Positions 25,105-59,695 of a stretch of DNA of 64,000 nucleotides are shown here, piece after piece (position 1 is the stretch's first letter; each line of letters begins with the position of its first letter). This stretch comes from Dehalococcoidia bacterium. GTDB taxonomy: Bacteria; Chloroflexota; Dehalococcoidia; Plut-88900. The stretch spans positions 2,656,001-2,720,000 of the forward strand of contig OZ240215.1 of NCBI GenBank assembly GCA_965197585.1, read 5' to 3'. Made by a program: the position numbers and the translations under genes. A model generated the notes under the pieces. That model was not told where the DNA came from. It did not search any database and saw nothing but the letters and a program-made list of their open reading frames with translations.

Positions 25105-25812
25105 TTATTCAGTTGTGTGGTTTCGGGTTCCGTTCTATTTGTTGGGGTGGTTGGCGATGGAAGACGCCTGCTGGACGATGCCCCCGTTCATGTGCCTCGG
25201 GTGCTCCGACGCCCTGGGGCAAGGGCGTCCGGCCCGCTTTTGCCGCTGCTGCGGCCTGTGGCCCTGTATACGCCGGACATGGGCAGGGACCTTCAGGGCC
25301 AGCAGGTCCGAGTCCGACTCCGGGGGGGTTGGCTGCACCGCATAAGGGCGGCTAGGAGGCCCGTCCAGCGTCCGATGCCGGGCCTCTTGCAGGCGTAATG
25401 TGTCCAAGTTTGCCGGTGCGACCCGGAGTGCAGGGACCACCGGCTCCCGGCTTTATTGAGCGGTCGGTGTACCGAGAGGGTCTCGGCGCCGGGTCTATCC
25501 GACCGCTATTCCGCTTGAAGGAGCGGCATCTCCGTTAGGAGCCTCACATGGAACGATAGCGAACCAGGGCGTCTTTCCATCGCCTGGGGGACAGGGAGAA
25601 GGGGCACGGGACCCGATGGGATGAGGAGATGGCGTCGTTTGCTTGAGCCGCAGGCCGCGGGAGGGCCATTGGGATGGGCTTGGACGTTGAGTCCTCGGAT
25701 GGGTCGGGTGGGCTTCCCTAGTTTTTGGTTCCTCCTTGAGATAGTTAGGTTGGTGTTCGAACGGTGAGGAGATTAGCACGGATGTTCAGGTGGGTCAAGG
25801 GGTTGATGTCAC
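25105..25812 (-). ncRNA. Copy A of a dispersed structured non-coding element (candidate large ncRNA plus promoter)
   Basis: Homology to 47123-47850 and 59037-59695; TTGACC-N17-TAATCT; long-range helix 25153-25170/25565-25584; no credible ORF. Confidence 0.6.
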
Positions 25813-25874
25813 AATTTAGGGGAGGGGTGGGTGAAAGAGCGGATGCGACGGATTGGCAAACGCGGGCCACCCCC

Positions 25875-26017
25875 CCCCGCTCGACCCTTCGACTTGGCTC
25901 AGGATGAGCGGCCCCGCACCGGGGATGGATTCCCGTGTCGGGGCACGAGAATGACGAGAGAGGTAAGGGTTGATTTAGGGAGAGACGCTTCAGATCCCTC
26001 GCGGGGCATCGGGATGG
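25875..26017. repeat. Cluster of REP-like palindromes (CCCTTCGAC..GCTCAGGATGAGCGG; GGATTCCCG..GAATGAC; AGATCCCTCGCGGGGC.TCGGGATG)
   Basis: Near-identical copies at ~54853-54895, ~47888-47915, ~54745-54772. Confidence 0.75.
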
Positions 26018-26090
26018 GAGGGGAGGTGGGGTGGTGAGTTAGAATTTACTTCGACATTACACCAGCTAAAGGTTCGACCGAGGAGACGAG

Positions 26091-26762
26091 TTGCAGGAAA
26101 AATTCAGTGATCACTTGCGAGCCCTTGGAAATTCGATCTGGGAGGCCCAGCGCAACCATCCATTTGTCACGGGAGTCGGGGACGGGACCCTGGAGATTGA
26201 AAGGCTGAAGTTCTGGGTCCGGCAGGACTACTTGTACCTGATCGACTATGCCAGAGTCTATAACCTGGCCGCGGCCAAGGCCCCGGACCCTGAGCTTTCC
26301 GGCTGGCTCACGTTTCACGCCGATTTCACCCTGAACAAGGAGATGGCCCTGCATCGATCCTACGCCCGGGACTTCGGGATAGGAGAAGATGAGCTAATCG
26401 CCGAACGGAAGTCGCCCACCTGCCAGGCTTACACGGACTTCCTGATGCGGACCGCCGCGGTAGAACCTTTCGAGGCGATCATAGCCGCTCTTCTCCCCTG
26501 CTTCTGGGGATACTACGAGATGGGCAAGTCTTTGGAGGAACGCGGGCTTCCGGAAAACGAGCTGTACGTGAGGTGGATAGAGCAGTACACGGACCCGGGA
26601 TACGGCGAGGAGGTACGGAAGTGTCGGGAGTTGACGGACCGGCTGGGGAGGGATGGGTCTGTGGCGACGAGGGCGCTGATGGAGGAGGCGTTCGTGACCA
26701 GCAGCCGGTACGAGTACCTGTTCTGGGAGATGTGTTACAGCCTGGAAAGATGGCCGGTGTAA
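26091..26762 (+). CDS. tenA: Thiaminase II / aminopyrimidine aminohydrolase
   Basis: HPFV..GDGTL, QDYLYL, LLPCFWGY, YEYLFW. Confidence 0.92.
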   Translation: MQEKFSDHLRALGNSIWEAQRNHPFVTGVGDGTLEIERLKFWVRQDYLYLIDYARVYNLAAAKAPDPELSGWLTFHADFTLNKEMALHRSYARDFGIGEDELIAERKSPTCQAYTDFLMRTAAVEPFEAIIAALLPCFWGYYEMGKSLEERGLPENELYVRWIEQYTDPGYGEEVRKCRELTDRLGRDGSVATRALMEEAFVTSSRYEYLFWEMCYSLERWPV

Positions 26763-26763
26763 G

Positions 26764-28563
26764 TTACGGGCCATCGGGCGCGGGCCGGGATTGGACTATA
26801 GGCGTGTACCAATATGTCTGGCGCATCCGCACCATGTCCTTGACCCTGCCGGCGCTCGTCGGCCTATCGAGGCCGGGGGTCTGGGCAGTGGACAGCGTGA
26901 GTGCCACGACTTCCGGTCGATCTTCGGAGGCTACGACCTCATGGCGAAGGGATCCGTCGCCCTGTTTGTCGAACACACCGCTCCGACCTATGTAATCGCC
27001 TCCGCAACGGTTGGCGAAAGCTACAAAGGCGTTGTTCTCCTCGCTGCGAGAGCGGAGCAGGTGCCAGTGCACGTCGTCGGCTTCCCTGAGGATAGGCTCT
27101 TCGAAGGGAACATCGGTGGGCCCCAGGCTCGCGGCCCGGGGATATTTGAGGGCCGCTGGCACGCATATCAGGTCGGCGCCCTTGACTCCGAAGGCTCTCG
27201 CGGCCTCTGGGAACATGGCGTCGTGCCCTACTAGAAGCCCAACCCGACCTGCAGGGATGTCGAATACGGGGAACCCGCCATCGCCGGGCGAGGCCCATGC
27301 TCGGTCATCCATCGACAGGTGTACCTTGCGGTAGCTTCCAACCAGCCCTTCCGGGCCGACCAGCAAGGCCGTGTTGTACATTCGCCCGGAGTCTTGCTCG
27401 ACGATGCTGGTTACCACAAAGGCGTCGTTGTCTCGGGCCAACGCGGTCAGCAACTTCACCGACTCACTATCACGTAGAACTTCTGGCAGGGTGCGGGCCT
27501 GGGACTCAGTGGTTACGGGGCCGGATAGAGCGAGTTCAGACAACACCAGGACATCGAAGGGCGAGTCCATGCCGTCAATCATTTGCCGGAGGGCTGCGAG
27601 GGTCTCTTTCCGAGTTCCCAGGCTCTCTTTCATCTGGCAGACGGCGATAGTGGACTCCTTCCCTGCCGGGAGTCCATCCTGCCCGTAGAGGCCGAAATAT
27701 TCGTTGGGGTTGAATAGGTAGGTGTTGAGGACCGAGTCGGAGTAGTGAGTCGGGCGCCGTTCGAGCAGCTTGTCTCCGGTCTCGTTGGCAGCGAACTTCT
27801 TGTCCCGGGCCTTGGCAATGTCGATGTATCCGTAGACGATCCCGTTCCCCGTGTCCCGGTAGGACTGTATGGCTCCGTCAGGATCTATGACCGCACTGCC
27901 CCCGGAGAACTCCACCGTGCGTTCGTTGCCCCAGCGGTCGGCGGCCACGAGGTAGACACCGTTTTCGAAGGCGCGGGTTATCCAGGCCGGGGCGGGTGCC
28001 TTTTCGAGCAGCCAGTTGGTTGGGAAGCAGATCACGTCGGCGCCGCGCAGGGCGAGAACGCGCGCCGTTTCCGGGAAGGATGCATCCATGCAGATGAGGC
28101 CGCCCAGGTTTCCGAGCTCCGTTCGAAATACGGGTAAATCCAGGTCGCCGTCCTTGGCCCAGGTGTTTTCGGAGATGAAGGAGTGGGTCTTGCGGTACTT
28201 TCCGACCACACCCTCCGGCCCGACCAGGGCCAGCGAGTTGTAGTAGATGTCCGTCTCGGGGTCCACCTCCGGCATGCCGACTACGATGTAGCAGCCATAC
28301 CGAGCCGCCAGTTCCCCGAACCTCTCAGTGGTGGGGCCGGGGATGGGCTCGACGTAGGGGGCGATCTCCGCACGGTCGAAGAAGCAATATGCGGTAGTCG
28401 CCATTTCGACGAGAACTATGAGCTTGGCGTCGTTCCTTGCTGCCTCTTCCACCATCTCAAGTTGCTCGAGCAGATTTCTCTCTTTTTCGAAGAGGGTGGG
28501 GGCGTACTGGATGGCGGCGGCTTTGTAGACCGGGGTCTGGGGGAGTGAGGCTTGGTCAGGCAT
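26764..28563 (-). CDS. Tandem two-domain carbon-nitrogen hydrolase (nitrilase superfamily)
   Basis: Domain 1 E...YRKTH...ICMD; domain 2 SEL...YRKVH...VGHD. Confidence 0.88.
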   Translation of the reverse strand: MPDQASLPQTPVYKAAAIQYAPTLFEKERNLLEQLEMVEEAARNDAKLIVLVEMATTAYCFFDRAEIAPYVEPIPGPTTERFGELAARYGCYIVVGMPEVDPETDIYYNSLALVGPEGVVGKYRKTHSFISENTWAKDGDLDLPVFRTELGNLGGLICMDASFPETARVLALRGADVICFPTNWLLEKAPAPAWITRAFENGVYLVAADRWGNERTVEFSGGSAVIDPDGAIQSYRDTGNGIVYGYIDIAKARDKKFAANETGDKLLERRPTHYSDSVLNTYLFNPNEYFGLYGQDGLPAGKESTIAVCQMKESLGTRKETLAALRQMIDGMDSPFDVLVLSELALSGPVTTESQARTLPEVLRDSESVKLLTALARDNDAFVVTSIVEQDSGRMYNTALLVGPEGLVGSYRKVHLSMDDRAWASPGDGGFPVFDIPAGRVGLLVGHDAMFPEAARAFGVKGADLICVPAALKYPRAASLGPTDVPFEEPILREADDVHWHLLRSRSEENNAFVAFANRCGGDYIGRSGVFDKQGDGSLRHEVVASEDRPEVVALTLSTAQTPGLDRPTSAGRVKDMVRMRQTYWYTPIVQSRPAPDGP

Positions 28564-28671
28564 GGGGTGCTCCTTCAGATCAGCGCATGGGCGAGACGGC
28601 GATGCCTTGACACTACAATCGACGGGAAAGCCCTGTCAAACGGGTCCGATCGATGAGGCAGAGAAAAGGGC

Positions 28672-29142
28672 ATGGCGATATATACTGTCAGTGGCGTCGG
28701 CCAAATCATTGACCCCGAGGGAAACCGCATGCCTGATCAAAAGGCCCTTCCAGCAAAGGAGCAGTTCCCGAATGTGCTGCAACGGACCCTGGAGCTCACG
28801 GGCGGGAGGGTCTCCAAGGAGAGTGTCGGGAAGCTGTACAAGATTTTCAAGACACTGCGCTGGGATTTCCCGGACTACGAGATGTCGGCGTACACGGTGC
28901 TGGACGCTGAAGGCGCTTTCGGGTATGCAGAGTGGATTGAGGGAGCGCCGGACGCACGGATAACTATGGACGCGGAGCGGCTGCACCAGGTGGTCTATGG
29001 TCGGGGGAACATGGCAAAGATGTTCCTTTCGGGGCAGATCAAGCTGAAGGGTGTCCCGATGTACAAGCTGATGAGGTTCGTTCCCTTGCTGGGGCCCTTT
29101 CTGGACAGCTACCGGGAAGCGTGTGAGGAAGCATCCAACTGA
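28672..29142 (+). CDS. SCP2 sterol/lipid-binding-like protein
   Basis: PDARITMDA...G..NMAKMFLSGQIKLKG C-terminal SCP2 signature. Confidence 0.7.
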   Translation: MAIYTVSGVGQIIDPEGNRMPDQKALPAKEQFPNVLQRTLELTGGRVSKESVGKLYKIFKTLRWDFPDYEMSAYTVLDAEGAFGYAEWIEGAPDARITMDAERLHQVVYGRGNMAKMFLSGQIKLKGVPMYKLMRFVPLLGPFLDSYREACEEASN

Positions 29143-29231
29143 TGCCGATCAAGCCGCACAGTGTGGACAGTCGGCGAGGACAGGCCATATAATGAGCCAT
29201 TCTCATCGGTGACGGCGGTGCCCCAACTACA

Positions 29232-30125
29232 ATGACAGAAGCCTCTACTAAACACGTCTCGACTTCCAGCACCCCTGCCAAAGTATCAGTGGCCGACGAG
29301 CACCATGAGATCCCCCGGCTCACCGTCGGGGAGATGGGCAGCCTGACCCAGACCATCCGCCGCCACATTGTTCGTATGACCGCGGCCGCGGGAAGCGGAC
29401 ACCCCGGCGGCTCTCTATCGTCGGTCGAAATACTGACAAGCCTCTATTTCAAAGTCCTCCGGCACGATCCCCGGGACCCGGACTGGCCGGGACGCGACAG
29501 GTTCATCCTGAGCAAGGGCCACTGCACCCCAGTCCTCTACTCCACGCTGGCAGAAGCGGGATATTTCCCAGTAGAGGAATTGGCGACCTTCCGGCAGGTG
29601 GACAGCCGACTCCACGGCCATTGCCACAACACTACACCGGGCGTCGAGCAGTGCTCGGGGTCCCTGGGGCAGGGGCTGTCAGTAGGGGTGGGGATGGCGT
29701 TGGCGGGGCGGCTGGACAACAGCCCGCACAATGTCTACGTGCTACTGGGGGATGGGGAATGTGACGAGGGGCAGATATGGGAAGCGGCCATGGCAGCCTC
29801 GCACTTCGGGCTGGACAACATTACGGTCATAGTAGACCGGAACGGCATCCAGAACGACCGGTGGACTCACGAGGTCATGAACCTGGAACCCTTGCCCGAT
29901 AAATGGCGGGCATTCGGCTGGGACGTGCACGAAGTCAACGGACACGATCTTGACCAGATGGTGGAGGCCCTAAGCAATGCTTCGCAAAGGGACGGGAAAC
30001 GGCACGCCATCATCGCCGGGACGGTTAAGGGCAAGGGCGTCAGCTTCATGGAGAACAACCCTGACTTCCACGGCAAGGCCCCCAACGCCGACCAGCTTCG
30101 GATCGCCCTAGAAGAGATTGGCTGA
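29232..30125 (+). CDS. Transketolase, N-terminal (TPP-binding) subunit
   Basis: SGHPGGSLS, DRFILSKGH, GSLGQG, GDGE..EG. Confidence 0.95.
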   Translation: MTEASTKHVSTSSTPAKVSVADEHHEIPRLTVGEMGSLTQTIRRHIVRMTAAAGSGHPGGSLSSVEILTSLYFKVLRHDPRDPDWPGRDRFILSKGHCTPVLYSTLAEAGYFPVEELATFRQVDSRLHGHCHNTTPGVEQCSGSLGQGLSVGVGMALAGRLDNSPHNVYVLLGDGECDEGQIWEAAMAASHFGLDNITVIVDRNGIQNDRWTHEVMNLEPLPDKWRAFGWDVHEVNGHDLDQMVEALSNASQRDGKRHAIIAGTVKGKGVSFMENNPDFHGKAPNADQLRIALEEIG

Positions 30126-31071
30126 AGCATTGGTTACGAAAGTCGCGACCCGGCAAGCCTTTGGCGAGACCCTTGTGGAGTTGGGCCGCACCAACCCCGA
30201 CATTGTGGTCATAGGCGGGGACTTGAACAAGTCCACGATGACCACTCTCTTCGCCAAGGAGTTCCCGGACAGGTTCTTCGACTGTGGAGCGGCGGAGCAG
30301 AACATGATGGGGATCGCCTCGGGGTTGGCGGCCTCGGGGAAGATACCATTTGCAAGCACCTTCGCCGTGTTTGGCTCGGGGCGGCCGTTCGATCAGATCA
30401 GGATATCGATAGCCCAGGCGCGGGCCAACGTGAAGATAGTCGTTACTCATGCCGGGATTATCACGGGCCCCGACGGGATGTCGGCGCACGGGATCGAGGA
30501 CTTAGCCCTGATGTGTTCCCTGGTGGGCTTCACGGTGGTCGTGCCCGCAGATGCGGCGGAGACAGTGCAGGCAGTGCGGGCCATGGCCGAGATGGACGGG
30601 CCCTGCTACCTGCGGCTCAGCCGCCCTGCGACGCCCATAGTCTGCCCGGAAGACTACCAGTTCCGGATCGGCAAGGCGACGGAATTCAGGCCGGGGAACG
30701 ACGTCACTATCATGGCCACGGGCATAATGGTGGCAATGGCCCTGGAAGCTGCAGAGAACTTGGCCCGGGAATCGATAGAGGCCCGCGTCGTGAACGTGTC
30801 GACGCTCAAGCCGTTTGATTTGGAGACGGTGGTTAGATGTGCTCGGGAGACGGGGGCGGTTGTGACGGCGGAGGAGCATCTGAAGCACGGGGGTCTGGGA
30901 AGTATTGTGGCCGAGGCGCTGGGGGAGCACTGCCCCGTGCCCATGTCCGTTGTGGCAATCGACGATGTCTACAGTCCTTCCGGAGAAGCAGACGAGCTAT
31001 TGAAAATGCGGGGTCTCACGCCGGAGCGGATAGCGAATGCGGCCAAAAGCGTAATTGAGAGAAGGAAATAG
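30118..31071 (+). CDS. Transketolase, C-terminal subunit
   Basis: AEQNMMG, GPDG.SAH, YLRL.R, EEH..GGLG. Confidence 0.95.
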   Translation: MAEALVTKVATRQAFGETLVELGRTNPDIVVIGGDLNKSTMTTLFAKEFPDRFFDCGAAEQNMMGIASGLAASGKIPFASTFAVFGSGRPFDQIRISIAQARANVKIVVTHAGIITGPDGMSAHGIEDLALMCSLVGFTVVVPADAAETVQAVRAMAEMDGPCYLRLSRPATPIVCPEDYQFRIGKATEFRPGNDVTIMATGIMVAMALEAAENLARESIEARVVNVSTLKPFDLETVVRCARETGAVVTAEEHLKHGGLGSIVAEALGEHCPVPMSVVAIDDVYSPSGEADELLKMRGLTPERIANAAKSVIERRK

Positions 31072-31252
31072 CGCCAGCCAAATAATAGTAATTTGAAAGA
31101 ACAACCCAGGGGACTGCGGGGATGCAGTGTAGGTGAGTGACGCTTCATGTTGGGGAGAGGAGGGCAGTGCATGGAAGTCTATCGACGAGTGGGAGTAAGT
31201 AGGGACCGTAAGTACGGGAGACCGGCTTACGGTCAGATGAGGAGGGAGTCGA

Positions 31253-32596: not shown

Positions 32597-32653
32597 CAGA
32601 TCTTGGGCCGGAGGTTGAGGCCTGCGGCATCTCGTAGCGGCCTACTCTTGATC

Positions 32654-32693
32654 GAGAGGCCCCGGAACTGAATATTCAGTTCCGGGGCCTCTC
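32654..32693 (+). terminator. Perfect 40-bp palindrome downstream of the SBP gene, probable terminator
   Basis: GAGAGGCCCCGGAACTGAAT/ATTCAGTTCCGGGGCCTCTC followed by pyrimidines. Confidence 0.6.
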
Positions 32694-32807
32694 CTTGTCT
32701 TTCAGTCAAAGGGTTGGCCTACTGTGCCGTGACATTGCTATCGTATGACTAATTTGACAAGCCGCGTCTGCGGATAGTAACGTGGCACGCACAAAGAAAT
32801 AGACCAC

Positions 32808-33168
32808 AAAGACAGTGAACGGGAGTAGTAAGCCTCAAGCGGGGGCCAGAGAGTCGGGTTAGGTGTGAGCCGACCCCAGCGCAGAGGTTGAATGGGCCCG
32901 GGAGTCGCCAACCGAAACCTTGGTGTGAACCAGGAAAGTAGGCTTGGCCGGAGAGGGCACCGTTATCAGGGCCCAGGGTATCTCGTCGGGAGGCATCAGC
33001 GCCTTCCGGTGGACGTACCTGGTTGAGATGTAGTCGGCTGACAGCTTCGATCGCCCCCTTCTTCCGGTAGCATACCGGGACGAAGGGTGAATCGAACGGG
33101 TTGGGGCCGATCAAATTAGGGTGGCACCGCGAGAAACCCCCTCGCCCCTAAGGGCGAAGGGGGTTTTT
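32808..33168 (+). promoter_or_regulatory. T-box riboswitch, Trp specifier (UGG)
   Basis: Stem I AGTA/AGAGAG/GGTG.GA motifs, GAA-TGG specifier at 32893-32895, CCGTTA, T-box AGGGTGGCACCGCG 33118-33131, terminator 33134-33168. Confidence 0.93.
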
Positions 33169-33188
33169 ATGTCCGAAAGGAATGTGCC

Positions 33189-34661
33189 ATGACCAGCATA
33201 GCAATTAGCAGATACACGCCGGACCTGGCTACCTTGGAAAAGCTATCCGGCCAAGGAACCCTTGTCCCCGTGTACCGGGAGATAGAGGCCGACCTGGAGA
33301 CTCCGGTCTCCGCCTACCTGAAAGTCGCCAGGGGGGACTATTCATTCCTTCTGGAAAGCGTAGAGGGTGGAGAGAGGCTGGCGCGATACAGCTTCATCGG
33401 GACGGAGCCCTACAAGCGGGTTGTTACCGGGCCGGGCCAGACCGACGGAGACGTGGACCCTTTGACGCTTGTCCAGGAAGAGATCGAGAGATCGTCGGTT
33501 GTAAGCGTACCGGGCCTGCCTCGGTTCCACGGCGGGGCTGTCGGGTACCTGAGCTACGAGGCGATGCATCACTACGAGGATGTACCGTCGCCGGAAGTCG
33601 ACACCCTCGGCCTGCCCGAGGCGCTCTTCATGTTCGCCGACACTCTGCTAGTCTTCGACCATGTAAAGCACAGCATCAAGGTCGTCTCTCACGTCCGGCT
33701 GGACGGTGGGGATATATCGTCTGCCTACCAACAGGCCGTAGACAAAATAGACGAGCTGGTGGAGAGGCTTCGGCAGCCCATAGAGCCAGCCCTGGCCTCT
33801 CTGCGGGGTGGGCCCTCAAGCTCCTACTCTACCGAATCCAACCTGACCCAGGAGCAGCACGAAGCGAATGTAAGCGCCGCCAAGGACTACATCCGGGCCG
33901 GGGACATCATCCAGGCCGTACTGTCGCAGAGGTTCTCCCGAAAGACTGACGTCCACCCTTTCAACATCTACCGAACCTTGAGGACGGTGAACCCGTCTCC
34001 CTACATGTTCTACCTGAACATGGGCAGCTTCCAGCTTGTCGGGGCCTCGCCGGAGGTGCTGGTGAGGGAGGAGGAAGGGCAACTGGACTACCGACCACTA
34101 GCGGGAACCAGGCCCCGAGGAAAGGACGACGAGGAGGACATGGCCCTGGAGCGGGAAATGGCGAACGACGAAAAGGACCGGGCGGAGCACATAATGCTGC
34201 TGGACCTGGGTCGGAACGACATTGGGCGGGTGAGCATACCGGGCACCGTGCAGGTGACCCAGCTCATGGACGTAGAACGATACTCCCACGTCATGCACCT
34301 TGTATCCCACGTCCAGGGACGGCTGAGGCCCGACATATCCCCCTACGATGCTGTCTGGTCATGCTTCCCCGCGGGCACCGTTTCCGGTGCGCCCAAGCTC
34401 CGGGCTATGGAGGTCATCGCCGAGCTGGAACCTGACAAGAGGGGGCCCTATGCCGGGTCTGTCGGGTACTTCAGCTTCTCGGGCAACATGGACACCTGTA
34501 TAACCCTCAGGACGATAGTGTTCAGCAACGGGGTGGCCCACTTCCAGTCCGGGAGCGGCATTGTGGCCGACAGCGTGCCCTATTCGGAGTACATGGAGAC
34601 GGTCCATAAGTCCATGGCCATCAGGAGGGCAATCGATGAGGCGGAGGCCAGGTCGTGGTAG
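33189..34661 (+). CDS. trpE: Anthranilate synthase component I
   Basis: LLESVEGG..ARYS, NPSPY, AEHIML.DLGRND, PAGTVSGAPK. Confidence 0.96.
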   Translation: MTSIAISRYTPDLATLEKLSGQGTLVPVYREIEADLETPVSAYLKVARGDYSFLLESVEGGERLARYSFIGTEPYKRVVTGPGQTDGDVDPLTLVQEEIERSSVVSVPGLPRFHGGAVGYLSYEAMHHYEDVPSPEVDTLGLPEALFMFADTLLVFDHVKHSIKVVSHVRLDGGDISSAYQQAVDKIDELVERLRQPIEPALASLRGGPSSSYSTESNLTQEQHEANVSAAKDYIRAGDIIQAVLSQRFSRKTDVHPFNIYRTLRTVNPSPYMFYLNMGSFQLVGASPEVLVREEEGQLDYRPLAGTRPRGKDDEEDMALEREMANDEKDRAEHIMLLDLGRNDIGRVSIPGTVQVTQLMDVERYSHVMHLVSHVQGRLRPDISPYDAVWSCFPAGTVSGAPKLRAMEVIAELEPDKRGPYAGSVGYFSFSGNMDTCITLRTIVFSNGVAHFQSGSGIVADSVPYSEYMETVHKSMAIRRAIDEAEARSW

Positions 34662-34692
34662 TATTTGACCGGTCATCAGGAGTACGCCGCAT

Positions 34693-44108: not shown

Positions 44109-47006
<2,898 letters not shown>

Positions 47007-47122
47007 GGAATGCAGTCACCTAAACTAAGGGGGTCCGGGAGGCCAACGACAATTTTAGCATCGGGGTGGGGGGAGGGGAAAGGGTGGGGGGGTGCTCGGT
47101 TGACTAGAGGCACGCTGGGGTT

Positions 47123-47850
47123 TTATTCAGTTGTGGGGTTTGGGTTTTTGTTCTGTCTGTGTTGGGGGGCGATGGGAGACGCCTGTTGAGCCTGTCGGCC
47201 TCTACGCTCGTGCGGTGTTCCGGCTGTCGGGGGCCTGGAGGTCCGCCGAGGACGGATTGCAGCCAGCCGCGCCCTAGCGCTCGATGGAGGGCTCCGACTG
47301 CCAGGGCAGACAGTCAGGCCTTGACCCCGCCTCTGAATGCCCGCAGGCATGGTGGGGGCCAGTGATCGGGCTGTAGCCCCCTCAGATATCGTATTTGCGT
47401 GGGCCACCCGAGGGTCCAAGCGGCCCAACAGCCCCTTGCTTGATATGGCGTAAGCTCGCAGGCGGGCCAACTTCCGAGAGGGAGTCTCGGCCGGGGATAG
47501 CCGGTCCGCCACCCCTAGCTCGATAAAGCGTAAGCTCGCTGCTAACCGACCTTCGAGACGGGGTCTCGGCGGGGGATGGCCGGTCCACTATGACGCCGTC
47601 CAGGCATCTTCCATCGCCTGACTACCAGGGAAGGGGGCACGGGACCCGATGGGAAAAGGAGATGGCGCCGGTCACTTGTGCCGCGGGCCTGCGCGAAGGC
47701 CGTTGGGATGGGCTTGGACGTTGAGTCCTCGGGGGGTCGGGTGGGCTTCCCTGGGTTTTTGGTTCCTCCTTTAGGTTTAGGGTGAGTTACTAGCTAGTCG
47801 GGGATGAATATAGTACATATGTACAAGTATGGTCAAGGGGTTCGTGTCAC
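47123..47850 (-). ncRNA. Copy B of the dispersed structured non-coding element
   Basis: TTGACC-N18-TATATT with GTACATATGTAC; helix 47168-47185/47601-47618; conserved core ~47627-47771. Confidence 0.6.
47432..47587. repeat. Imperfect 80-bp tandem duplication inside copy B
   Basis: CCCCTWGCTYGATA..GCGTAAGCTCGC...CGAGA.GG.GTCTCGGC.GGGGAT.GCCGGTCC twice. Confidence 0.85.
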
Positions 47851-48016
47851 TTTTTGGGGGGCACCCCACCCATTCCGTTCTTGAGACCCCCTTCGACTCT
47901 GCTCAGGGCGAACGGAATTCACCACCCGTGGGGAGGGGTCCGGCTCGGTGAGGGTGCGTCTTCAGGAGGGATGGGTTCCTGCCTCCGCAGGAATGACGGT
48001 GGGGAGGGGGGTGGGG

Positions 48017-48415
48017 CTACCCTCCCATCTGGGCAATGCGCCGGGCCATCCAGGTGATGTAGGCGGTGCGGGTCATTTTGCGGCGTCGGGCTTCGCTGTC
48101 GATGAAGGCGGCGACGCCATCGTCAAGAGTGAGATTGGCACGGACTTTCCTCCCGGAGATGCGTATAAGGGGCACAGAAACGAGTTGGCAACCCAAGGGC
48201 ACATCAATGGATTCGAAGGGGCTCGGTGGAGCTACTTCCCTACCTCTTTTCTCCATCTCTTCCACCCAGTCCCGCATTGCATCTTCGGCATTTACAATTG
48301 CATCTTCGACCGTGTAGCCCATGGCTGCGCAACCAGGAAGGTCCGGGAAGGCAACTCCGTAGGCGCCTACTTCCCCGTCCATTAGAGCGGGATATCTTAT
48401 GGGATTGGCTTCCAT
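48017..48415 (-). CDS. hicB: HicB-family antitoxin with C-terminal RHH
   Basis: YGVAFPDLPGC..MG.T...A, RANLTLD. Confidence 0.9.
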   Translation of the reverse strand: MEANPIRYPALMDGEVGAYGVAFPDLPGCAAMGYTVEDAIVNAEDAMRDWVEEMEKRGREVAPPSPFESIDVPLGCQLVSVPLIRISGRKVRANLTLDDGVAAFIDSEARRRKMTRTAYITWMARRIAQMGG

Positions 48416-52004: not shown

Positions 52005-52255
52005 CAGTCGTCTTCCTTCGGATGGCCGTAGAGATAGTGTCTCTTGTTCTTTGCCAAGTCGGTGGGAAGGTCGTCCCATGCCTCAGATGGAATGTCTTTC
52101 TGGAGGTCTTTGACTCTTTCGACGATGGCAGTCAAGCCTCTGGCGGGCGGCAGGTCCTCTATTGAGACTACGACCTCCTTGCCCTCCTCCAAGTCGAGCG
52201 GCTCCAATGGCGTGAGGACCCCTTTGGAATACCTGGCCTTCACATTCGCAATCAT
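52004..52255 (-). CDS. DUF104/AF2212-like antitoxin
   Basis: VKARY.KGVL.PLEPLDLEEG.EV.V; C-terminal HYLYG.PK. Confidence 0.8.
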   Translation of the reverse strand: MIANVKARYSKGVLTPLEPLDLEEGKEVVVSIEDLPPARGLTAIVERVKDLQKDIPSEAWDDLPTDLAKNKRHYLYGHPKEDD

Positions 52256-52573
52256 GGCCGCACCTTTCCAGCTATAGCGCACATTGTTTTGCGCTTCCGC
52301 AATGATAACCCGAATATAACATCAAACTGCACTGAAGATAGCCCGCGCTGCATCTATAGCAGGGTACAGAAAAACGCTTTTTGAGTTTTCCCGCAGCCTC
52401 TCCCTGGCCAGGAAGGGGGGAGAAAGTTATATCTGAGGGACACCCTCAGACTCCCGTCGAGGGGCTCTGCCTATCTGCACACCCCATATTTCAGCAGCCT
52501 GCTAGTTTCGTCGGGAGCAATTGCCATGCTTCAATGGCCTGAGATAACAGACCAGGCATGAAGGGCATATGGG

Positions 52574-53881: not shown

Positions 53882-53919
53882 AGACCTGCGATGGGGGGTG
53901 GTGCGGGGTGAGTTCAGGG

Positions 53920-54558
53920 TTAAGAATCCCAGGAGACGTGGCCGTGGATGTCGTCGGGGTGGGAGCGTGACTTAAAGCCGGCGTGGAGACGCTTGGTCTC
54001 GCCGAGGACGCCTTCGTCGCCGTGGCCCGGGTAGATGTTGATGTCGTCGTCCAGGACAATGAGCTTGGTGTCGACGTTGTGGAGGAGTTGCTGAAAGTTC
54101 TCGGGGGTGGTGGTGTAGCCGGGGCCGCCGGGGAAGAGGGTGTCGCCGCTGAAGAGGTGCTTGCCCCAGAGGAGGGAGGTGGCGCCGGGGGTGTGACCGG
54201 GATTGTGGATGGTCCTGAGGGTGATGTTGCCGAAGGAGAAGCTGCCGCCGTCTTCGAAGTGCTGGTCAGCCTTGATGGGAAGCTCGCTTTCGTCGTCGGG
54301 GTGGACGACGAGGGGGATGCCGAGGGCGTCTTTGAGAGCTTTTGTGCCGTCGATATGGTCGAAGTGGGTGTGGGTGAAAAGGACGGCCTGGACATTGGTG
54401 TCCTTGGCCTGATCCAGGACACGCTCGGGCTGAGCGGGGGCGTCGATGATTACGCTCTCGTTGGTCTTGGGGCAGACGACTAGGTAGGCGTTGTTTTCGA
54501 AGTCGCCGGTGACTATCTTCCTGATCTCAATATTTTCGTCTTTGTGCAGTACGGCCAT
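53920..54558 (-). CDS. MBL-fold metallo-hydrolase (glyoxalase II-like)
   Basis: THTHFDHI, PGHTPG, GDTLF, PGHG. Confidence 0.92.
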   Translation of the reverse strand: MAVLHKDENIEIRKIVTGDFENNAYLVVCPKTNESVIIDAPAQPERVLDQAKDTNVQAVLFTHTHFDHIDGTKALKDALGIPLVVHPDDESELPIKADQHFEDGGSFSFGNITLRTIHNPGHTPGATSLLWGKHLFSGDTLFPGGPGYTTTPENFQQLLHNVDTKLIVLDDDINIYPGHGDEGVLGETKRLHAGFKSRSHPDDIHGHVSWDS

Positions 54559-54744
54559 GATGTCCTCCAGAGACTGTGTGGGCGGTGGTCAAGGGGTGGT
54601 GTTTGTGGGAGAAAGCTTAGCAAATGGGGGGTGGGGTTGCAATGAGGTGGAGGGGGCGGGCGGCCCCTATTGGGACGGTGATAGGGGATCCAAGAGAAGA
54701 CTAGGGCTACTCGATGAGAAAAGAGGACTTGGGGGCAGACGCCT

Positions 54745-54900
54745 TAGATCCCTCGCGGGGCCTCGGGATGACACAGAACAAGGCGCAAGAAAGGTCAGGA
54801 ACGACGGAGAGGTGGCGTTAAGCGAACTTGACGTATTGGCAGTGCGTGGTCGCCCCCCGCTCGATCCTTCGAGTGCCTCAGGATGAGCGGCCCCTCACCG
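54745..54900. repeat. REP-like cluster
   Basis: Same two palindrome families as at 25875-26017. Confidence 0.75.
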
Positions 54901-54960
54901 GGGAGGGCGGCCACGAGAGCCGCCCATACGGAAGGGAAGGTCGGGAAGGACGGATGAGTA

Positions 54961-55929
54961 CTAGAGAAGGGGGGCGACTTTGTTGGCCATGAGACCCATC
55001 TGGCGCATGAGGGTGTCGTGGGGTTCCACGCCGTGGCGGACGAAGTCGAATACGAAGTGGTCGAGGCCCGCATCCAGGTAGTTGGATATGCGCTCGGCGC
55101 TCTGTTCCGGGGAGCCAGCGACGGTTACGGCCCCAATGTCTACGGCGTATTCCAGGTCCATCAGGCCGGAGAAATAGTCCTCAATTTCGGCGGTGGACAT
55201 TTCCCTGCCCTCGGTGACTGTGGAGTAAATCCACGCGCTGACCTTGGCCTTCTCTCCCCACTTGCCCGGCGGGGCGTTGTTGAGGCCGGGGAGATACACA
55301 TCGTTAAGCTCGTCGAAGGTGGGCCAGGGGGGATTGATGTACTCGCAGTAGCGTGCGGCGCGTGGAATAGACACGGAGCGGCCACCCCACCAGATGGGTG
55401 GATAGGGCTTCTGGACGGGTTTCGGCTCCATGGAAACGCCGTTCAGCTTGTAGAACTGGCCATCGTAGGTGACTTCGTCCTCGGTCCAGAGGCGGGTAAT
55501 AATTTCAAGCTGCTCGTCGGCGATGGCGCCACGTTTCCGCCGGTCGGCGCCCACGGCGTGGAAGGCTTCATCAACCATGCCAAGGCACATCCCGACTATG
55601 ACCCTGCCATTGGATATGACGTCCAGACTGGCGAAATACTTGGCCCAGTCGAAGGGAGGGAGATAGGGGAGGGGAATGGAGTCGACGGCAATCCGGATTT
55701 TGGATGTGGCGGCGATGATGGCAGGAAGGAGGACACGGGCGTCGAGGATGCTCTTGTTGCCGAAGCGGCCGAAGGGGCCGGCGTCGGGGATGGCGTTCAT
55801 CAGTGGAACGTTGACGGAGTAGAAGCCGAGCTTTTCGGCGTACTGGGCGGCCTCCACAACCTCGGTCATGGTCGGGGGTTTGCGGCCCCACGGGAAGACC
55901 GCGACGCTGAAGTGGTCCATGATGGGCAT
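54961..55929 (-). CDS. LLM-class flavin/F420-dependent oxidoreductase
   Basis: AEKLGF, SLDVISNGR, PKPVQKP.PPIW.GG, AGSPE. Confidence 0.9.
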   Translation of the reverse strand: MPIMDHFSVAVFPWGRKPPTMTEVVEAAQYAEKLGFYSVNVPLMNAIPDAGPFGRFGNKSILDARVLLPAIIAATSKIRIAVDSIPLPYLPPFDWAKYFASLDVISNGRVIVGMCLGMVDEAFHAVGADRRKRGAIADEQLEIITRLWTEDEVTYDGQFYKLNGVSMEPKPVQKPYPPIWWGGRSVSIPRAARYCEYINPPWPTFDELNDVYLPGLNNAPPGKWGEKAKVSAWIYSTVTEGREMSTAEIEDYFSGLMDLEYAVDIGAVTVAGSPEQSAERISNYLDAGLDHFVFDFVRHGVEPHDTLMRQMGLMANKVAPLL

Positions 55930-56089
55930 GTGGTCTGGCCTCCAAGCTTGTTTGTTTGGGTGAGTATATCAGGGGGAGGATGAAGTGGGACGCGTGGGTG
56001 GCATGAAGAAGTTCAGGGATGCTGTGATATTAAGTGTTATGATCTGGCGACCGAATTTTGGATCATTCATGTATTTCGAAAGGTGAAAA

Positions 56090-56428
56090 ATGGGAAAATA
56101 CGTAGCGCTCTATTACTCATCGCCTGAGGTTATGGAGTCGATGAAGAATGCTGCACCGGAGGATATGCAAGAAGGCATTAAGTCCTGGATGGCCTGGGGT
56201 CAAAAGTGCGGGGACGGCATCGTGGACTTCGGGGCGCCTCTCGGGGGCGGGATGAAAGTTGGGAAGTCGGGAAGCTCTCCGAGCGGCAGCGATGTGATGA
56301 TGTACTCGATTTTGCAGGCGGAGAGTATGGAAGGGGCGCTGGCCCTGATGCAGGACCATCCGCACTTGAGTTGGCCGGGCGACGGCGAGATCGAAGTTTA
56401 CGAGTGCATGAATCTCCCGCCGATGTAA
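56090..56428 (+). CDS. YciI-like protein
   Basis: W.AW....G..IVD.G.PL, YSILQAES...A....DHPH. Confidence 0.7.
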   Translation: MGKYVALYYSSPEVMESMKNAAPEDMQEGIKSWMAWGQKCGDGIVDFGAPLGGGMKVGKSGSSPSGSDVMMYSILQAESMEGALALMQDHPHLSWPGDGEIEVYECMNLPPM

Positions 56429-56433
56429 GCACC

Positions 56434-58869
56434 CTAAGCGACTATATTCACCAGCCGACCCGGTACGTAGACGACTTTCCGAGGCCCGTTCTTCATGAAG
56501 GCCCTTATCCGGTCGCTGGATAGGGCTACTTCCTTCGCCTCTTCCTCGGTGATGCCCGCCGAGACTGTTACCCGGTCTCTGACCTTGCCGTTGACCTGCA
56601 CAACGAGGGTGACTTCTTCCTCTGCGGCGAGGGCATCGTCCCATTGGGGGAAGGGTTGATTGTGAATGCTGTATTCGTAGCCTTTAGCGGCCCACAACTC
56701 CTCGGCGAGGTGGGGGGCGGTTGGGGCGAGCATTAGCAGCAACGCCCTTATCGACTCTCTCCAAGTCTCCGCGTCCACCGACCCTTCATCCAGGGCTCGG
56801 GCGAGGTGGTTGGTGAACTCCATCAGCGAAGCTAACGCAGTATTGAAATGGAACCGGTCCAGGTCCTGGTGCACCTTCTTGATGGTCTTGTGCAGCATGT
56901 GAATCGTCTGTTTAGACGACTTGCCGGGCCCCAATTCGGGGTCGTCCCGCTCCGTCAGGTCCCAGACCCGGTTGTACCAGCGCACTATCCCGTTTATCCC
57001 CTGGTCGACCCACTCTCCACCCTGGTCCCACGGCCCGATGAACATCAGGTATCCGCGAACGACGTCGGCGCCTACGGTGTCGACGTACTCGTCGGGGGTG
57101 ATGACGTTGCCACGGGACTTGCTCATCTTCTGCCTGTCGCTGATGATGATGCCCTGGTTGTAGAGCCTGACGAAGGGCTCGTCGAAGTCGAGCAGGCCGA
57201 TGTCTCGCAGGGCTTTGACGAAGAAGCGGGCGTAGAGCAGGTGCATCACCGCGTGCTCGGCGCCGCCGGTGTACTGGTCGACGGGCAGCCAGTGCTTGAT
57301 CTCCTCCGGTTTGAAAGCCGAGTCCCCGGAGTTGGGGGAAGCGTACTTTAAGAAGTACCAGGAGGAGCACATGAAGGTGTCCATGGTGTCGGTCTCCCGG
57401 CGAGCCGGGCCCCCACACTCGGGGCAGGTAGTATTCACAAACTCTTTGTGGAACGTGAGGGGTGATTCGCCGGTGGGTCTGAACTCGGCGTCTTCCGGTA
57501 GCAGCACCGGAAGTTGGTCCTCGGGGATGGGGACTATGCCGCAGGCGTTGCAATAGACCATAGGTATCGGGGCTCCCCAATACCGTTGGCGGGATATGAG
57601 CCAATCACGGATACGGTAAGAGACTGTGCCGCCACCGATGCCCTGCTCCTCCAAGGCTCGTGTAACAGCCTGCTTCCCATCTTCATTCCCAAGGCCCACG
57701 AACTGTCCTGAGTTGACCATCTCCCCGGGCCCCGTGTAAGCCTCCACAAAGTCCTCGCCGCCCCATCCAGGCGGAGCGATTACCGTCCTGATGGGAAGGT
57801 CATATTTCTTGGCGTATGCAAAGTCCCGGGTGTCGTGGGCGGGGACGCCCATGACGGCACCGGTGCCGTAGGTGAGAAGTGCGTAGTCGGCGATGAAGAT
57901 GGGGACCTTCTCGCCGTTCAGGCGGTTGGTGCAGTAGGCACCGATGAATACTCCCGTCTTCTCCTTGTCCGTAGCAAGCCGCTCTATCTCGGAGCGCCGC
58001 CTCGTCTCCTCGACGTAGGCTTGTACCTCTTCCTTCTTGTCAGGAGTAGTGAGCTGGGAAACCAGCGGATGCTCTGGGGCGAGAACCATGAAGGTCACGC
58101 CGAACACGGTGTCGGGACGGGTGGTGAAGACTCTTATCTCGGTTTGCTCAAGGCCGTACTCCTCGATGCTGAATGCAATCTCAGCTCCCTGGCTCTTGCC
58201 GATCCAGTTGGACTGCATCGTGTTTATGCGGTCGGGCCACTGGATGCTGCTGAAGTCGAGGAGTTCATCGGCGTACCTGGTGATCCTGAAGAACCACTGC
58301 TCCAAGTCTCTCCTGGTCACCGAGGAGGTACAACGTTCGCACGTACCGTCGGGGAGGACTTGCTCGTTGGCAAGGGTAGTCTGGCAGGTCGGGCACCAGT
58401 TGGCGGGGGCCTTGTTTCGGTACGCGAGCCCTGCATGGAACAGCTTGAGGAAAAGCCACTGAGTCCATTTATAGTAATCGGGCAGGGAGGTCACGACCTC
58501 ACGGTCCCAGTCGTACACAGCGCCAATGCGCTTGAGCTGCCGGCGCATGTTCTCGACGTTGCGCATGGTCCACAAGTGGGGATGGATGCCGTTCTTGATG
58601 GCGGCGTTCTCGGCGGGGAGTCCGAACGCGTCGAAACCCATGGGGTGGAGGACGTTGTAGCCCTGCATGCGCTTGAAACGGGCGTGGACGTCCGCGGGGG
58701 CCATAGCGTACCAGTGGCCGATGTGCAGGTTCCCGGAGGTGTACGGGAACATGGTGAGCTCATACCACTTGGGCTTGCCGGGGTCTTGATCCACGCGGTA
58801 CAGCCGGTCCTTGTTCCACCTTTGCTGCCACTTGGTCTCTATTGCTGACGGGTCGTATCTCAGGGGCAT
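56434..58869 (-). CDS. leuS: Leucine--tRNA ligase
   Basis: MFPY.SG.LHIGH, FTTRPDT, KMSKS. Confidence 0.98.
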   Translation of the reverse strand: MPLRYDPSAIETKWQQRWNKDRLYRVDQDPGKPKWYELTMFPYTSGNLHIGHWYAMAPADVHARFKRMQGYNVLHPMGFDAFGLPAENAAIKNGIHPHLWTMRNVENMRRQLKRIGAVYDWDREVVTSLPDYYKWTQWLFLKLFHAGLAYRNKAPANWCPTCQTTLANEQVLPDGTCERCTSSVTRRDLEQWFFRITRYADELLDFSSIQWPDRINTMQSNWIGKSQGAEIAFSIEEYGLEQTEIRVFTTRPDTVFGVTFMVLAPEHPLVSQLTTPDKKEEVQAYVEETRRRSEIERLATDKEKTGVFIGAYCTNRLNGEKVPIFIADYALLTYGTGAVMGVPAHDTRDFAYAKKYDLPIRTVIAPPGWGGEDFVEAYTGPGEMVNSGQFVGLGNEDGKQAVTRALEEQGIGGGTVSYRIRDWLISRQRYWGAPIPMVYCNACGIVPIPEDQLPVLLPEDAEFRPTGESPLTFHKEFVNTTCPECGGPARRETDTMDTFMCSSWYFLKYASPNSGDSAFKPEEIKHWLPVDQYTGGAEHAVMHLLYARFFVKALRDIGLLDFDEPFVRLYNQGIIISDRQKMSKSRGNVITPDEYVDTVGADVVRGYLMFIGPWDQGGEWVDQGINGIVRWYNRVWDLTERDDPELGPGKSSKQTIHMLHKTIKKVHQDLDRFHFNTALASLMEFTNHLARALDEGSVDAETWRESIRALLLMLAPTAPHLAEELWAAKGYEYSIHNQPFPQWDDALAAEEEVTLVVQVNGKVRDRVTVSAGITEEEAKEVALSSDRIRAFMKNGPRKVVYVPGRLVNIVA

Positions 58870-59036
58870 TTAACTGTCCGTTCTCCTAAGTCCTAACTCT
58901 CCCGACAATCGCAAAAGCTACCACGGGGTGGGTGGGTGTGCAAGGATGGGCACTCGTTCGGGCGGGTTGGTGATGCGCCGGGTTTTCTTCAGTCCTCCTG
59001 AGGCGGATCCTTCAGAGGCGGATGTTCCATCTTCGA

Positions 59037-59695
59037 TTGTGGGGTTTCGGTTTGGTTTGTTTGGGAGGGGGCAGGCGATGGAAGGTCCGGGACTAGAAAC
59101 CAGGCCGGAGGTTGTTGCCGAGCCGTCGGCGCCGGGCTGGATTATCCCCACATGTTGTCGGCTGTGGTCAGGGTTGTGTGGGGCCGATCCCACCGGCAGC
59201 GGCACTTGACCGGACCGCTGACGGGGAAGATGCCGCCTGAGGCGGTCTTTCAGAACCGGCGTCCCGGTGCATCCGCCGGGTAGACGGATGGCAGGGACGG
59301 CGGGACAAACAAGGACACGAGGGCCTTGCTAAACCGGGGGTCGGTTGACTTACCCGGGAAACCGGCACGCAATGGGCCGGGGTAAACGCACCCGGTAATG
59401 GGGGCGTTGAATCGGCAGGGGCCCTGGACGGGGCCTGCCGCGTATAGTCTGTGGACATTCCATCGCCTGGAAATTGGGGGAAGGGGCACGGGACCCGGGG
59501 GAAGAGGAGATGGCGACTTTTGCTTGAGCCGCGGGTCCTTGGTAGGGCCGTTGGGATGGGCTGAGGCGTTGAGTCCTCGGGTGGGTCTAGTGGGCTTCCC
59601 TGGGTTGTGGTTCCTCCTTGAGATAGTTGGATTGGTGTTCGAACGGTGGGGAGCATAGCACAAGTGTTCAGGTAGGGTCAAGGGGTTCGTGTCAC
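59037..59695 (-). ncRNA. Copy C of the dispersed structured non-coding element
   Basis: TTGACC-N18-TATGCT with GAACACTTGTGC; helix 59072-59095/59445-59469; conserved core ~59477-59619. Confidence 0.6.

Follow-up and report, generated by a model that had tools for sequence, protein, structure and literature searches.

A probable non-autonomous DNA transposon with a structured-RNA cargo in one genus of Dehalococcoidia

Three intergenic regions in a 64,000-nt stretch of Dehalococcoidia DNA (the window; contig OZ240215.1, assembly GCA_965197585.1), here called copies A, B and C, share an elaborate minus-strand architecture, raising the question of whether they are non-coding RNA (ncRNA) genes, products of RNA-templated spread or a mobile element of another kind. 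The source genome (G000) is one 3.43-Mb contig with 59% G+C. The shared layout had been described from the letters alone (the sequence-only reading); full-length alignment recovered every motif then listed, and the similarity of A, B and C is far beyond chance. The evidence below indicates that the element is probably a genus-restricted, non-autonomous DNA transposon of cut-and-paste type with a structured-RNA cargo, comparable to a large MITE (a miniature transposable element with inverted repeats). MITEs are usually well under ~600 bp, and the length of complete copies (739-872 bp) makes this an atypical one. New here are the ends, the target duplications, the empty sites, the target rule, a candidate transposase and the structure of the core.

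From its promoter each element continues through an AAGGAGG box and a conserved core to a variable cassette enclosed by a long helix; an A/C-rich tail terminating in CACAA comes last. In a flank alignment of all copies the left boundary is sharp in ~16, with TGATCCCGTTCACATAGAGGGG directly before GTGACA, the first promoter motif. Past CACAA, many copies run through CTGAA(T/G)AAAA into ...GGTGTGTCACTAATCTACCGAACGAGTACA and then into unique sequence. Complete copies start with TGATCCCGTTCACATAGAGGGG+GTGACA and end with ...TCACTAATCTACCGAACGAGTACA, giving imperfect TG...CA inverted ends (left end versus reverse-complemented right end: score 6; shuffles -6.2 ± 3.1, 1/2000 as high). The 739-872 bp from end to end become 1029-1199 bp with nested inserts, i.e. 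a unit of 0.74-0.87 kb or 1.0-1.2 kb. The extents first flagged were too short, as complete copies extend ~21 bp beyond the flagged left limit and 40-110 bp beyond the right one; because the flagged coordinates stop short of the ends, and because the ends of the window copies are lost or degraded, the element had seemed to have no terminal inverted repeats, an impression that the inverted ends and target duplications of complete copies overturn.

Among 22 distinct left/right end pairs, taken from G000 and from loci fetched from relatives, a 5-bp flanking repeat is perfect in 11 and matches at 4/5 positions in five more. The perfect repeats comprise nine different words, with ~0.02 perfect repeats expected by chance, and in 10 copies the duplication keeps the same distance to GTGACA, an offset of -26. 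In G000 the copy at 3361.7-3362.4 kb reads ...GCGGT GAGGC|TGATCCCG...746 bp...GAGTACA|GAGGC TTTAAC..., and the corresponding empty site in relative G002 reads ...GCGGTGAGGCTTTAAC...; this insertion is absent in 8/8 relatives, and the closest paralogue of the inserted copy has 96% identity. At 2399 kb, G000, G002 and G005 share a copy that 6/9 genomes lack, among them G003 with an exact single-copy GCATT junction. Short metagenome contigs include mosaic joins between copies, and two joins that skip, respectively, copy B with its upstream repeats (47088 to 48021) and most of copy C (59033 to 59893); these two, each with 20-24 other letters at the join, are suggestive of relatives without the elements and are too noisy to count. 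For left ends of the B and C types no target duplication was found, and palindromic repeats resembling repetitive extragenic palindromes (REP-like repeats) are nested there; one copy of this kind (937 kb) has its true left end past the nested repeats, at a distance of 220 bp upstream, with matching TACCC duplications.

Inverted ends, 5-bp duplications and exact empty sites in relatives thus uphold the proposal that the element is mobile. Its other half, that of an RNA-templated mobile element, fares differently: the promoter moves with the unit, the ends are TG...CA with 5-bp duplications, and the reverse transcriptase domain RVT_1 was not found in the single-contig G000. The TnpB-type domain PF07282 was likewise not found in G000, IscB-specific domains not having been searched, and none of the 58 G000 copies is an autonomous version with a long protein-coding insert.

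Those 58 are full 5′ modules detected with nhmmer, which also returned 18 partial modules (mostly the promoter alone) and 50 tails; promoter-to-tail length among G000 copies is 624-821 nt. With covariance model R1, built on the core from 50 sequences with 28 pairs, 58 matches were obtained in G000 and 23-68 in each of eight other genomes of the genus, placing the element in 9/9 genomes of one Dehalococcoidia genus; three other genera of the same order gave 0 matches, as did another 145 genomes of the class, representing 109 other genera. The distribution by BLAST agrees; in a pattern scan of public genomes all records among the matches listed are 'MAG: Dehalococcoidia bacterium', while the viral contigs searched gave 0 matches. 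Over the nine genomes there are ~420 copies, ~1.2% of these genomes, blank in annotation. The sequence-only reading had predicted a multi-copy family with many more members genome-wide and had proposed searches with the core; nhmmer, BLAST and covariance searches indeed define a family of 58 copies here, confined to one genus among the genomes searched. It had also found no match among the RNA classes that it named, and Rfam agrees: nothing reached gathering score for copies A and B, and relaxing the limit to E = 10 brought up only models of no relevance, namely U6atac and two eukaryotic long non-coding RNAs. Literature searches on Chloroflexi/Dehalococcoidia ncRNAs, MITEs, mobile promoters and IS481 found no description of the element.

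The insertions are precisely placed with respect to host promoters. In 56 distinct right-end flanks, positions +6/+7/+8 are T/T/G in 50, 47 and 48, respectively, and TTGAC (≤1 mismatch) begins at +6 in 34, any other offset accounting for at most one flank. TAnnnT follows at a 16-18 nt spacer in 29 of these 34, compared with 1.7% of random genome positions. Between the right end and the host TTGAC(-35)-N16-18-TAnnnT promoter downstream of it there are therefore 5 bp, and the element promoter points the same way. Both empty sites show that the promoter-like target sequence predates insertion, and the constant spacing to the -35 hexamer argues for the transposase, rather than selection, as the source of this precision. 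By a crude gene map the downstream gene is on the same strand in 45/58 copies; in the window these genes are uvrA (copy B) and leuS (copy C), while copy A is followed by a later-arrived insertion sequence (IS). A lone left end with GTGACA-N8-TTG, found on the plus strand at G000:C1:~3404961, precedes a CIRCE operator (TTAGCACTC-N9-GAGTGCTAA) and groES-groEL, and looks like a deletion derivative that has left a hybrid promoter.

The core is ~125 nt long, or ~170 nt when measured from the AAGGAGG box to the closing helix. (CA)GGCGATGGAA is the reverse complement of TYCCATCGCC, and the two pair as the outer segment of that helix (15-20 bp). The short palindrome reported near +1 is present, but is not one sequence: it varies by leader subtype (TTCGAA, CTAGCTAG, GTCTAGAC or TGGCCA). 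The parts of the three window copies, all on the minus strand, are:

25794-25812 (A), 47832-47850 (B) and 59677-59695 (C), minus strand: GTGACA-N8-TTGAC(C)
25731-25737 (A), 47765-47771 (B) and 59613-59619 (C), minus strand: AAGGAGG
25770-25812, minus strand: copy A promoter (GTGACA 25807-25812; -35 TTGACC 25793-25798)
25776-25787, minus strand: copy A operator-like box GAAC-ATCC-GTGC, with -10 TAATCT at 25770-25775
25593-25737, minus strand: copy A Shine-Dalgarno (SD)-like AAGGAGG and 5′ core domain
25713-25719 with 25593-25601, minus strand: copy A helix P1; 25701-25710 with 25605-25614: P2
within 25685-25696 (GAGGA) with within 25623-25631 (UCCUC), minus strand: copy A helix P3
within 25593-25737, minus strand: copy A conserved unpaired stretches ACUCAACG and AGCCCAUCCCAA (25669-25680)
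25153-25584, minus strand: copy A closing helix (5′ arm 25564-25584; 3′ arm 25153-25174)
25175-25563, minus strand: copy A cassette, A-type
25105-25152, minus strand: A/C-rich tail of copy A, its last letters being CACAACTGAATAA; a right end is not recognisable beyond it
47807-47850, minus strand: copy B promoter (GTGACA 47845-47850; -35 TTGACC 47831-47836)
47813-47824, minus strand: copy B palindromic box GTAC-ATAT-GTAC, with -10 TATATT at 47807-47812
47627-47771, minus strand: copy B AAGGAGG and core domain
47746-47752 with 47627-47633, minus strand: copy B helix P1; 47734-47743 with 47638-47647: P2
within 47719-47730 with 47656-47664, minus strand: copy B helix P3
47168-47618, minus strand: copy B closing helix (5′ arm 47601-47618; 3′ arm 47168-47185; one A.C mismatch)
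47092-47167, minus strand: copy B A/C-rich tail (to ~47123) and degenerate right-end remnant (47092-47124)
59652-59695, minus strand: copy C promoter (GTGACA 59690-59695; -35 TTGACC 59676-59681)
59658-59669, minus strand: copy C box GAAC-ACTT-GTGC, with -10 TATGCT at 59652-59657
59477-59619, minus strand: copy C AAGGAGG and core domain
59595-59601 with 59477-59483, minus strand: copy C helix P1; 59583-59592 with 59487-59496: P2
within 59567-59578 with 59504-59512, minus strand: copy C helix P3
59074-59467, minus strand: copy C closing helix around a C-type cassette (5′ arm 59453-59467; 3′ arm 59074-59088)
58949-59073, minus strand: copy C 3′ region, with the A/C-rich tail to CACAA at ~59037
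58988-59036, minus strand: two small GGAACATCCGCC/TCCGCCTCAGGAGGA hairpin modules inserted in copy C
58949-58986, minus strand: copy C right-end remnant ...CCCGAACGAGTGCC, then CATCC+TTGCAC ahead of leuS (56434-58869)

Copy A has no type-1 left end upstream of its promoter, and its tail is followed by a REP-like GTCATTCC repeat, which the IS interrupts. The B-type cassette of copy B contains a ~75-nt hairpin unit that is internally duplicated, and beyond the right-end remnant there is a promoter-like TTTCCC-N18-TAAAAT ahead of uvrA (44109-47006). REP-like repeats lie immediately upstream of the copy C promoter and, in B and C alike, occupy the expected position of the left end. The window copies are old and immobile: A is without both ends, and the right ends of B and C are degraded and their left ends unrecognisable. 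Two kinds of small repeat accompany the elements. A ~20-25-nt hairpin module (GGAACATCCGCC..GGCGG/GGAGGA) occurs as 0-3 insertions between the tail CACAA and CTGAA, and modules of the same GGAACATCCGCC type also interrupt some cores, at the Hb loop, and leaders of a sister family (family 2, below). REP-like palindromic repeat families (e.g. GTCATTCC...GGAATC, CCCTCTCCCTTAATGGCCCTAAGGGAGAGGG and ...CCCTGAGC..GTCGAAGGG...) crowd just upstream of elements, nested in left ends, and occur at many other sites; window clusters are at ~25830-25960, ~47880-48010 and ~59720-59840 (minus strand).

The conserved scaffold of the sequence-only reading can now be given as a folded core with covarying pairs. 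P1 is GGGAAG/CUUCCC, P2 is CAC-CC-GACCC/GGGUC-CC-GUG and P3 is GAGGA/UCCUC, with two small hairpins in addition; ACUCAACG and AGCCCAUCCCAA stay unpaired, and no start codon follows AAGGAGG. About a quarter of copies belong to a second core subfamily of the same architecture, with GGGGGAA/UUCCCCC and AGCC-CC-GGCC/GGCC-CC-GGCU in place of these helices, and in some copies Watson-Crick pairs (CGAGACCC/GGGUCUCG) close the CC/CC internal loop. Across 50 sequences 90.2% of 1382 cells are paired, compared with 39-55% when partners are slid, and both-side changes number 28 cells versus 15.5 ± 3.1 in shuffles (0/500 shuffles reach 28). As judged from such alignments, the helices of the element covary. 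An alignment-free comparison agrees: cognate core strands outpair cross-subfamily partners in 117/133 copies, and the closing helix, compared over its inner 16 nt, gives the same result in 125/133. The CAGGCGATGGAA/TYCCATCGCC helix is formed in 138/138 distinct copies, with duplex energies of ~-27 to -39 kcal/mol. Folding z-scores of whole elements against dinucleotide shuffles are -1.9 to -5.4 for the sense strand, below the antisense z in 7/7 copies. Substitutions between orthologues keep the fold better than random ones of the same type in 15/18 pairs (sense Stouffer z -4.7), and departures from the closing helix, counted by eye, are G.U in ~28 copies versus A.C in 7. A strand test on raw duplex energy was set aside as non-discriminating, since it favours the G-rich antisense strand through composition.

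The cargo is non-coding, as had been stated. Stops in the three frames over 58 copies number 255, 227 and 248 (~4 per frame per copy) and the core has 1-nt indels, so that there is no shared open reading frame (ORF), nor does the element carry a transposase gene. A sister family provides the contrast. Family 2 has 14 G000 copies behind the same promoter (e.g. L032:386-1243 and L033:311-1381), with SD+ATG (MSRTSL...) and a frame open for 220-455 codons in 13/14, the other frames having 1-17 stops; it shares the promoter and tail, and its frame passes through the homologous closing helix and cassette. The open frame of family 2 shows that its absence from family 1, the element described here, is a real difference. 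In public assemblies 477 predicted proteins match family 2, with module insertions and deletions in frame; REP-like and 54-codon repeats are among the in-frame insertions. The ORF has no Pfam match, and differences at codon positions 1, 2 and 3 (0.192, 0.202 and 0.185) show no bias, which makes the protein doubtful as a selected product, even though gene callers report this frame as 'hypothetical proteins' by the hundred. The two families are combined in one hybrid G000 copy, and descent of family 1 from a translated ancestor is possible.

Copies evolve as mosaics. Of 83 copies sampled from relatives, 40 sit at the site of a G000 copy (one or both flanks), with flanks 82-99% identical and core identities of 0.64-0.99, the core often being more diverged than the flanks. 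Cassettes at these orthologous sites fall into two groups, 0.86-1.00 identical in 22 pairs and ~0.45 (unrelated) in 18; at locus B, for example, G005 and G002 have flanks of 94-98% and cores of 0.77-0.80 around an unrelated cassette. The payload is exchangeable, as first suggested, in the sense that cassettes are swapped at orthologous sites with conserved flanks. As some orthologous pairs have a target duplication in common (e.g. CCCTA at 1917 kb), recombination between paralogues is the simplest account of the swaps, rather than re-insertion. Modules would be exchanged by recombination between conserved segments, and cassette exchange is most simply explained as a by-product of homology between those segments.

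The promoter module (GTGACA-N8-TTGAC...CTATATT) is highly conserved, with 78 of this type in G000, and points into the element in all copies. It fronts both element families as well as protein genes and tandem arrays. Two of these arrays, at G000:C1:~1341693 (minus strand) and ~2522236 (plus strand), are non-coding, with units of 60 nt (GCGGATGCC.GCGGCAAT...) in one and ~11-12-nt TTCAATC-type repeats in the other. Between -35 and -10 lies an operator-like box, [GA][AT]AC-N4-GT[ATG]C, the commonest words being AAAC/GTAC, GAAC/GTGC and GTAC/GTAC. Compared with the Gram-positive-type LexA box (GAAC-N4-GTTC), 0/78 promoters match at 8/8 positions, 26 at 7/8 and 45 at 6/8, while 5.5% of random 27-mers match at 6/8 or better. 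The lexA gene itself (G000:C1:1609876) has a perfect GAACGCCCGTTC box upstream, after the -10. Because the copies share ancestry and their counts are not independent, the LexA link is a lead and not a finding. Upstream of recA (~3159300) there is only GAACACATATCC.

On this basis a sigma70-type promoter just inside the left end, with its palindromic operator-like box, would drive a 0.6-0.75-kb ncRNA comprising an AAGGAGG leader, the three-helix core, the 15-20-bp closing helix round a hairpin-rich cassette and an unstructured A/C-rich tail. The transcript would head towards the host promoter, so that the element would amount to an added, separately regulated upstream promoter with a long structured leader. 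The tail, A/C-rich and unpaired in minimum-free-energy folds, is C-rich and G-poor and is a candidate Rho entry site that may limit read-through; a rho gene is present in G000 (593 bits). A role as a CsrA sponge was considered and dropped, as no CsrA gene was found in G000.

A candidate source of transposase lies next to copy A:

24025-25080, minus strand: insertion sequence of 1056 bp with a 320-aa rve/rve_3 transposase (24054-25016)

Its ORF matches rve_3 (6.8e-23) and rve (7.3e-10), its inverted ends begin TGT..., it is flanked by a 5-bp duplication (ATTCC), and the same site in G002 is without it. G000 has 21 copies at 89-100% identity; the IS has been recently active, and at least nine of the 21 copies are within ~2 kb of an RNA element. 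The label 'IS481-like' is used provisionally from the size, the single rve ORF and the TGT ends, not from a database assignment. The left end of the IS resembles the right end of the element (score 10; shuffles -4.0 ± 2.7, 0/2000 as high), and 5/2000 shuffles reach the score of the IS right end against the same element end. Other rve ISs in G000 (1262-, ~1315- and 950-bp groups) show no obvious end resemblance by eye, none of them having been scored. No close relatives of the transposase were found in three sister genera. With the mismatches given below also taken into account, it is likely that the IS481-like transposase, or a lost relative of it, mobilises the element in trans.

Several observations weigh against the reading as a non-autonomous transposon with an RNA cargo, or against parts of it. 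A recognisable right end is found in 26/58 G000 copies and both ends in 9/58, copies A, B and C show no target duplication, and the gene map behind the same-strand count spans 59% of the genome, with copy C at least assigned wrongly. Regarding the transposase, the left end of the element does not match the IS end significantly (307/2000 shuffles reach the score), the IS targets a REP-like GTCATTCC|GATGC site and not positions beside -35 boxes, and relatives of its transposase (≥84% identity) occur in only 5/9 carrier genomes, one of the five carrying two in-frame TAG codons. For the RNA, core covariation is modest (shuffles are 89.1% paired against 90.2% observed) and the core structure was derived from the same sequences as were used in the pair counts; the orthologue test is equally strong antisense (15/18 pairs, Stouffer z -6.2); raw duplex energy is sense-favoured in 48/133 closing helices and 0/133 core strands; and the G.U and A.C departures reduce to only ~4 versus 3 distinct changes. 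Gene conversion from intact paralogues could mimic structure-preserving changes, and the start site, strand and 3′ end of the putative transcript are taken from promoter consensus.

With strand tests this weak, structure at the level of DNA or of an antisense RNA remains to be weighed: hairpins or cruciforms serving transposition, replication or recombination, the sense RNA being incidental. In its favour are the strand symmetry of the helices, an orthologue test and raw energies in which the antisense strand does no worse or better, and the nature of the element as a DNA transposon; the conserved -35/-10 promoter, however, points inward in every copy, sense folding z is the lower in 7/7 copies and closing-helix departures are more often sense G.U (~28 versus 7 copies). 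DDE/rve transposases work on double-stranded ends and are not known to need an internal 400-bp forest of hairpins, and we regard this account as distinctly improbable. Somewhat more weight, although it too is unlikely, goes to a resident or domesticated family of host ncRNA genes with a cellular job, mobility being only the ancient route by which it spread; the RNA might be a regulator under stress control, a sponge for protein or a leader tuning ~60 housekeeping promoters. Many copies are indeed old and at orthologous sites (the 40/83 above), where unswapped cassettes are ~95% identical against ~94% for the mostly coding flanks (row averages), orthologue substitutions preserve the fold in 15/18 pairs, 71/78 promoters match 6-7 of 8 LexA-box positions with lexA itself bearing GAACGCCCGTTC, and copy B stands in front of uvrA. 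Yet at least one insertion is specific to G000 and 96% identical to its paralogue, showing that spread is recent as well as old; ends are lost and inserts nested, as in decaying transposons; conservation and fold-preserving changes can arise by gene conversion too; and 0/78 boxes match the LexA consensus at all eight positions, in copies that are not independent.

That family 1 consists of decayed protein-coding genes, its fold left over from a family-2-like coding element, is very improbable. Such a descent would fit the family-2 copies that keep an SD+ATG frame (13/14) behind the same promoter and with the same tail and closing helix, the 477 database proteins with in-frame indels and the hybrid copy, but family 1 has ~4 stops per frame per copy, 1-nt core indels and no start after AAGGAGG, and keeps its helices with compensatory changes, while family 2 itself lacks codon-position bias and a Pfam match. 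Almost no weight can be given to an RNA-mediated or RNA-guided element (be it a retroelement, something akin to retrons or group II introns, or one resembling IS200/IS605 omega-RNA or HEARO systems), despite the multi-copy, ORF-less, structured RNA with a variable part: no RVT_1 or TnpB-type domain was found in the single-contig G000 and no relevant Rfam family for the element, viral contigs gave 0 matches, and the non-transcribed promoter belongs to a repeat that has inverted ends and 5-bp duplications, which IS200/IS605 elements are not known to have. These transposon features, together with the searches for reverse transcriptase and TnpB, leave the RNA-templated reading and the omega-RNA analogy unsupported.

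The non-autonomous DNA transposon therefore remains the probable reading. A bolder extension of it, which we consider speculative and unlikely to be right, is a domesticated, promoter-seeking transposon. Its transposase complex would be guided by -35 hexamers, or by RNA polymerase bound at promoters, and would place a self-promoted, operator-controlled structured RNA of ~0.6 kb at 5 bp from ~60 host promoters, on their upstream side, those of uvrA and leuS among them; the RNA, its core constant and its cassettes recombining, would then act as a genome-wide, possibly DNA-damage-responsive regulator or leader. Were this true, it would be a bacterial counterpart of the eukaryotic elements that target Pol III promoters, turned into a regulatory network.

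The window contains two further RNA features, a T-box leader at 32806-33152 (plus strand; 99.4 bits, above gathering score) upstream of an ORF at 33189-34661 and a tRNA gene at 11366-11439 (minus strand). GC skew in G000 is very strong and irregular (-0.11 to -0.18 over most of 1.2-2.6 Mb), with a cumulative minimum at 2.64 Mb and maximum at 1.04 Mb; the positions of dnaA (3.03 Mb) and of the one 16S gene (0.68 Mb), together with 49 tRNA genes in mixed orientation, yield no coherent two-replichore map. The C-rich strand of the elements tends to follow the locally C-rich strand.

If the transposon reading holds, this is an unusually large non-autonomous bacterial transposon, whose cargo is a promoter-driven, multi-domain RNA with interchangeable modules. 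It would point to a possible mechanism for promoter-directed integration in bacteria, with the site fixed within a base or two relative to host -35 boxes, and ~60 genes per genome would have gained a second upstream promoter and a long structured leader. The ~420 related RNAs, with two core subfamilies and several cassette types, are suited to structure determination.

Among large RNAs, the element recalls HEARO/IscB/TnpB omega-RNAs, OLE, GOLLD, ROOL and raiA in being a large structured RNA, such RNAs sometimes being multi-copy or borne by mobile elements. OLE, GOLLD, ROOL, raiA and HEARO are families included in Rfam 15, and the element differs from HEARO/omega-RNA systems in having no Rfam match, no TnpB domain found and the chemistry of terminal inverted repeats and target duplications. 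With IS481-family and IS3-like ISs it shares TG(T)...CA termini, the 5-bp duplication and a similar right end, and both it and the 1056-bp IS are confined to the same genus among the genomes searched; unlike that IS, it has no transposase gene, a dissimilar left end and a -35 box as target rather than the REP-like GTCATTCC|GATGC site. Promoter-bearing MITEs that yield RNA are closer relatives in kind: the review PMC10969869 names Correia/NEMIS in Neisseria, QMITE1 in Coxiella, for which RNA is reported, and E622 in Pseudomonas syringae, Correia being 204 bp and E622, at 611 bp, the largest of the examples noted. Such elements are likewise non-autonomous, with inverted ends, target duplications and dozens of copies, intergenic just upstream of genes, with a sigma70-like promoter on the element and a related IS proposed to mobilise them in trans. 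Set against them, the present element is larger (0.74-0.87 kb, compared with the 204 bp of Correia), its promoter faces inward onto a ~0.6-kb cargo with a conserved multi-helix core, its cassettes are swapped, its target is fixed 5 bp from a -35 hexamer and only one of its ends resembles the candidate parent IS. Finally, as with the 'mobile promoters' of PMC3575422, one promoter module stands ahead of unrelated sequences; here the vehicle is identified, as a transposon with terminal inverted repeats and target duplications, and the promoter would drive the element's own RNA and not the host gene directly.

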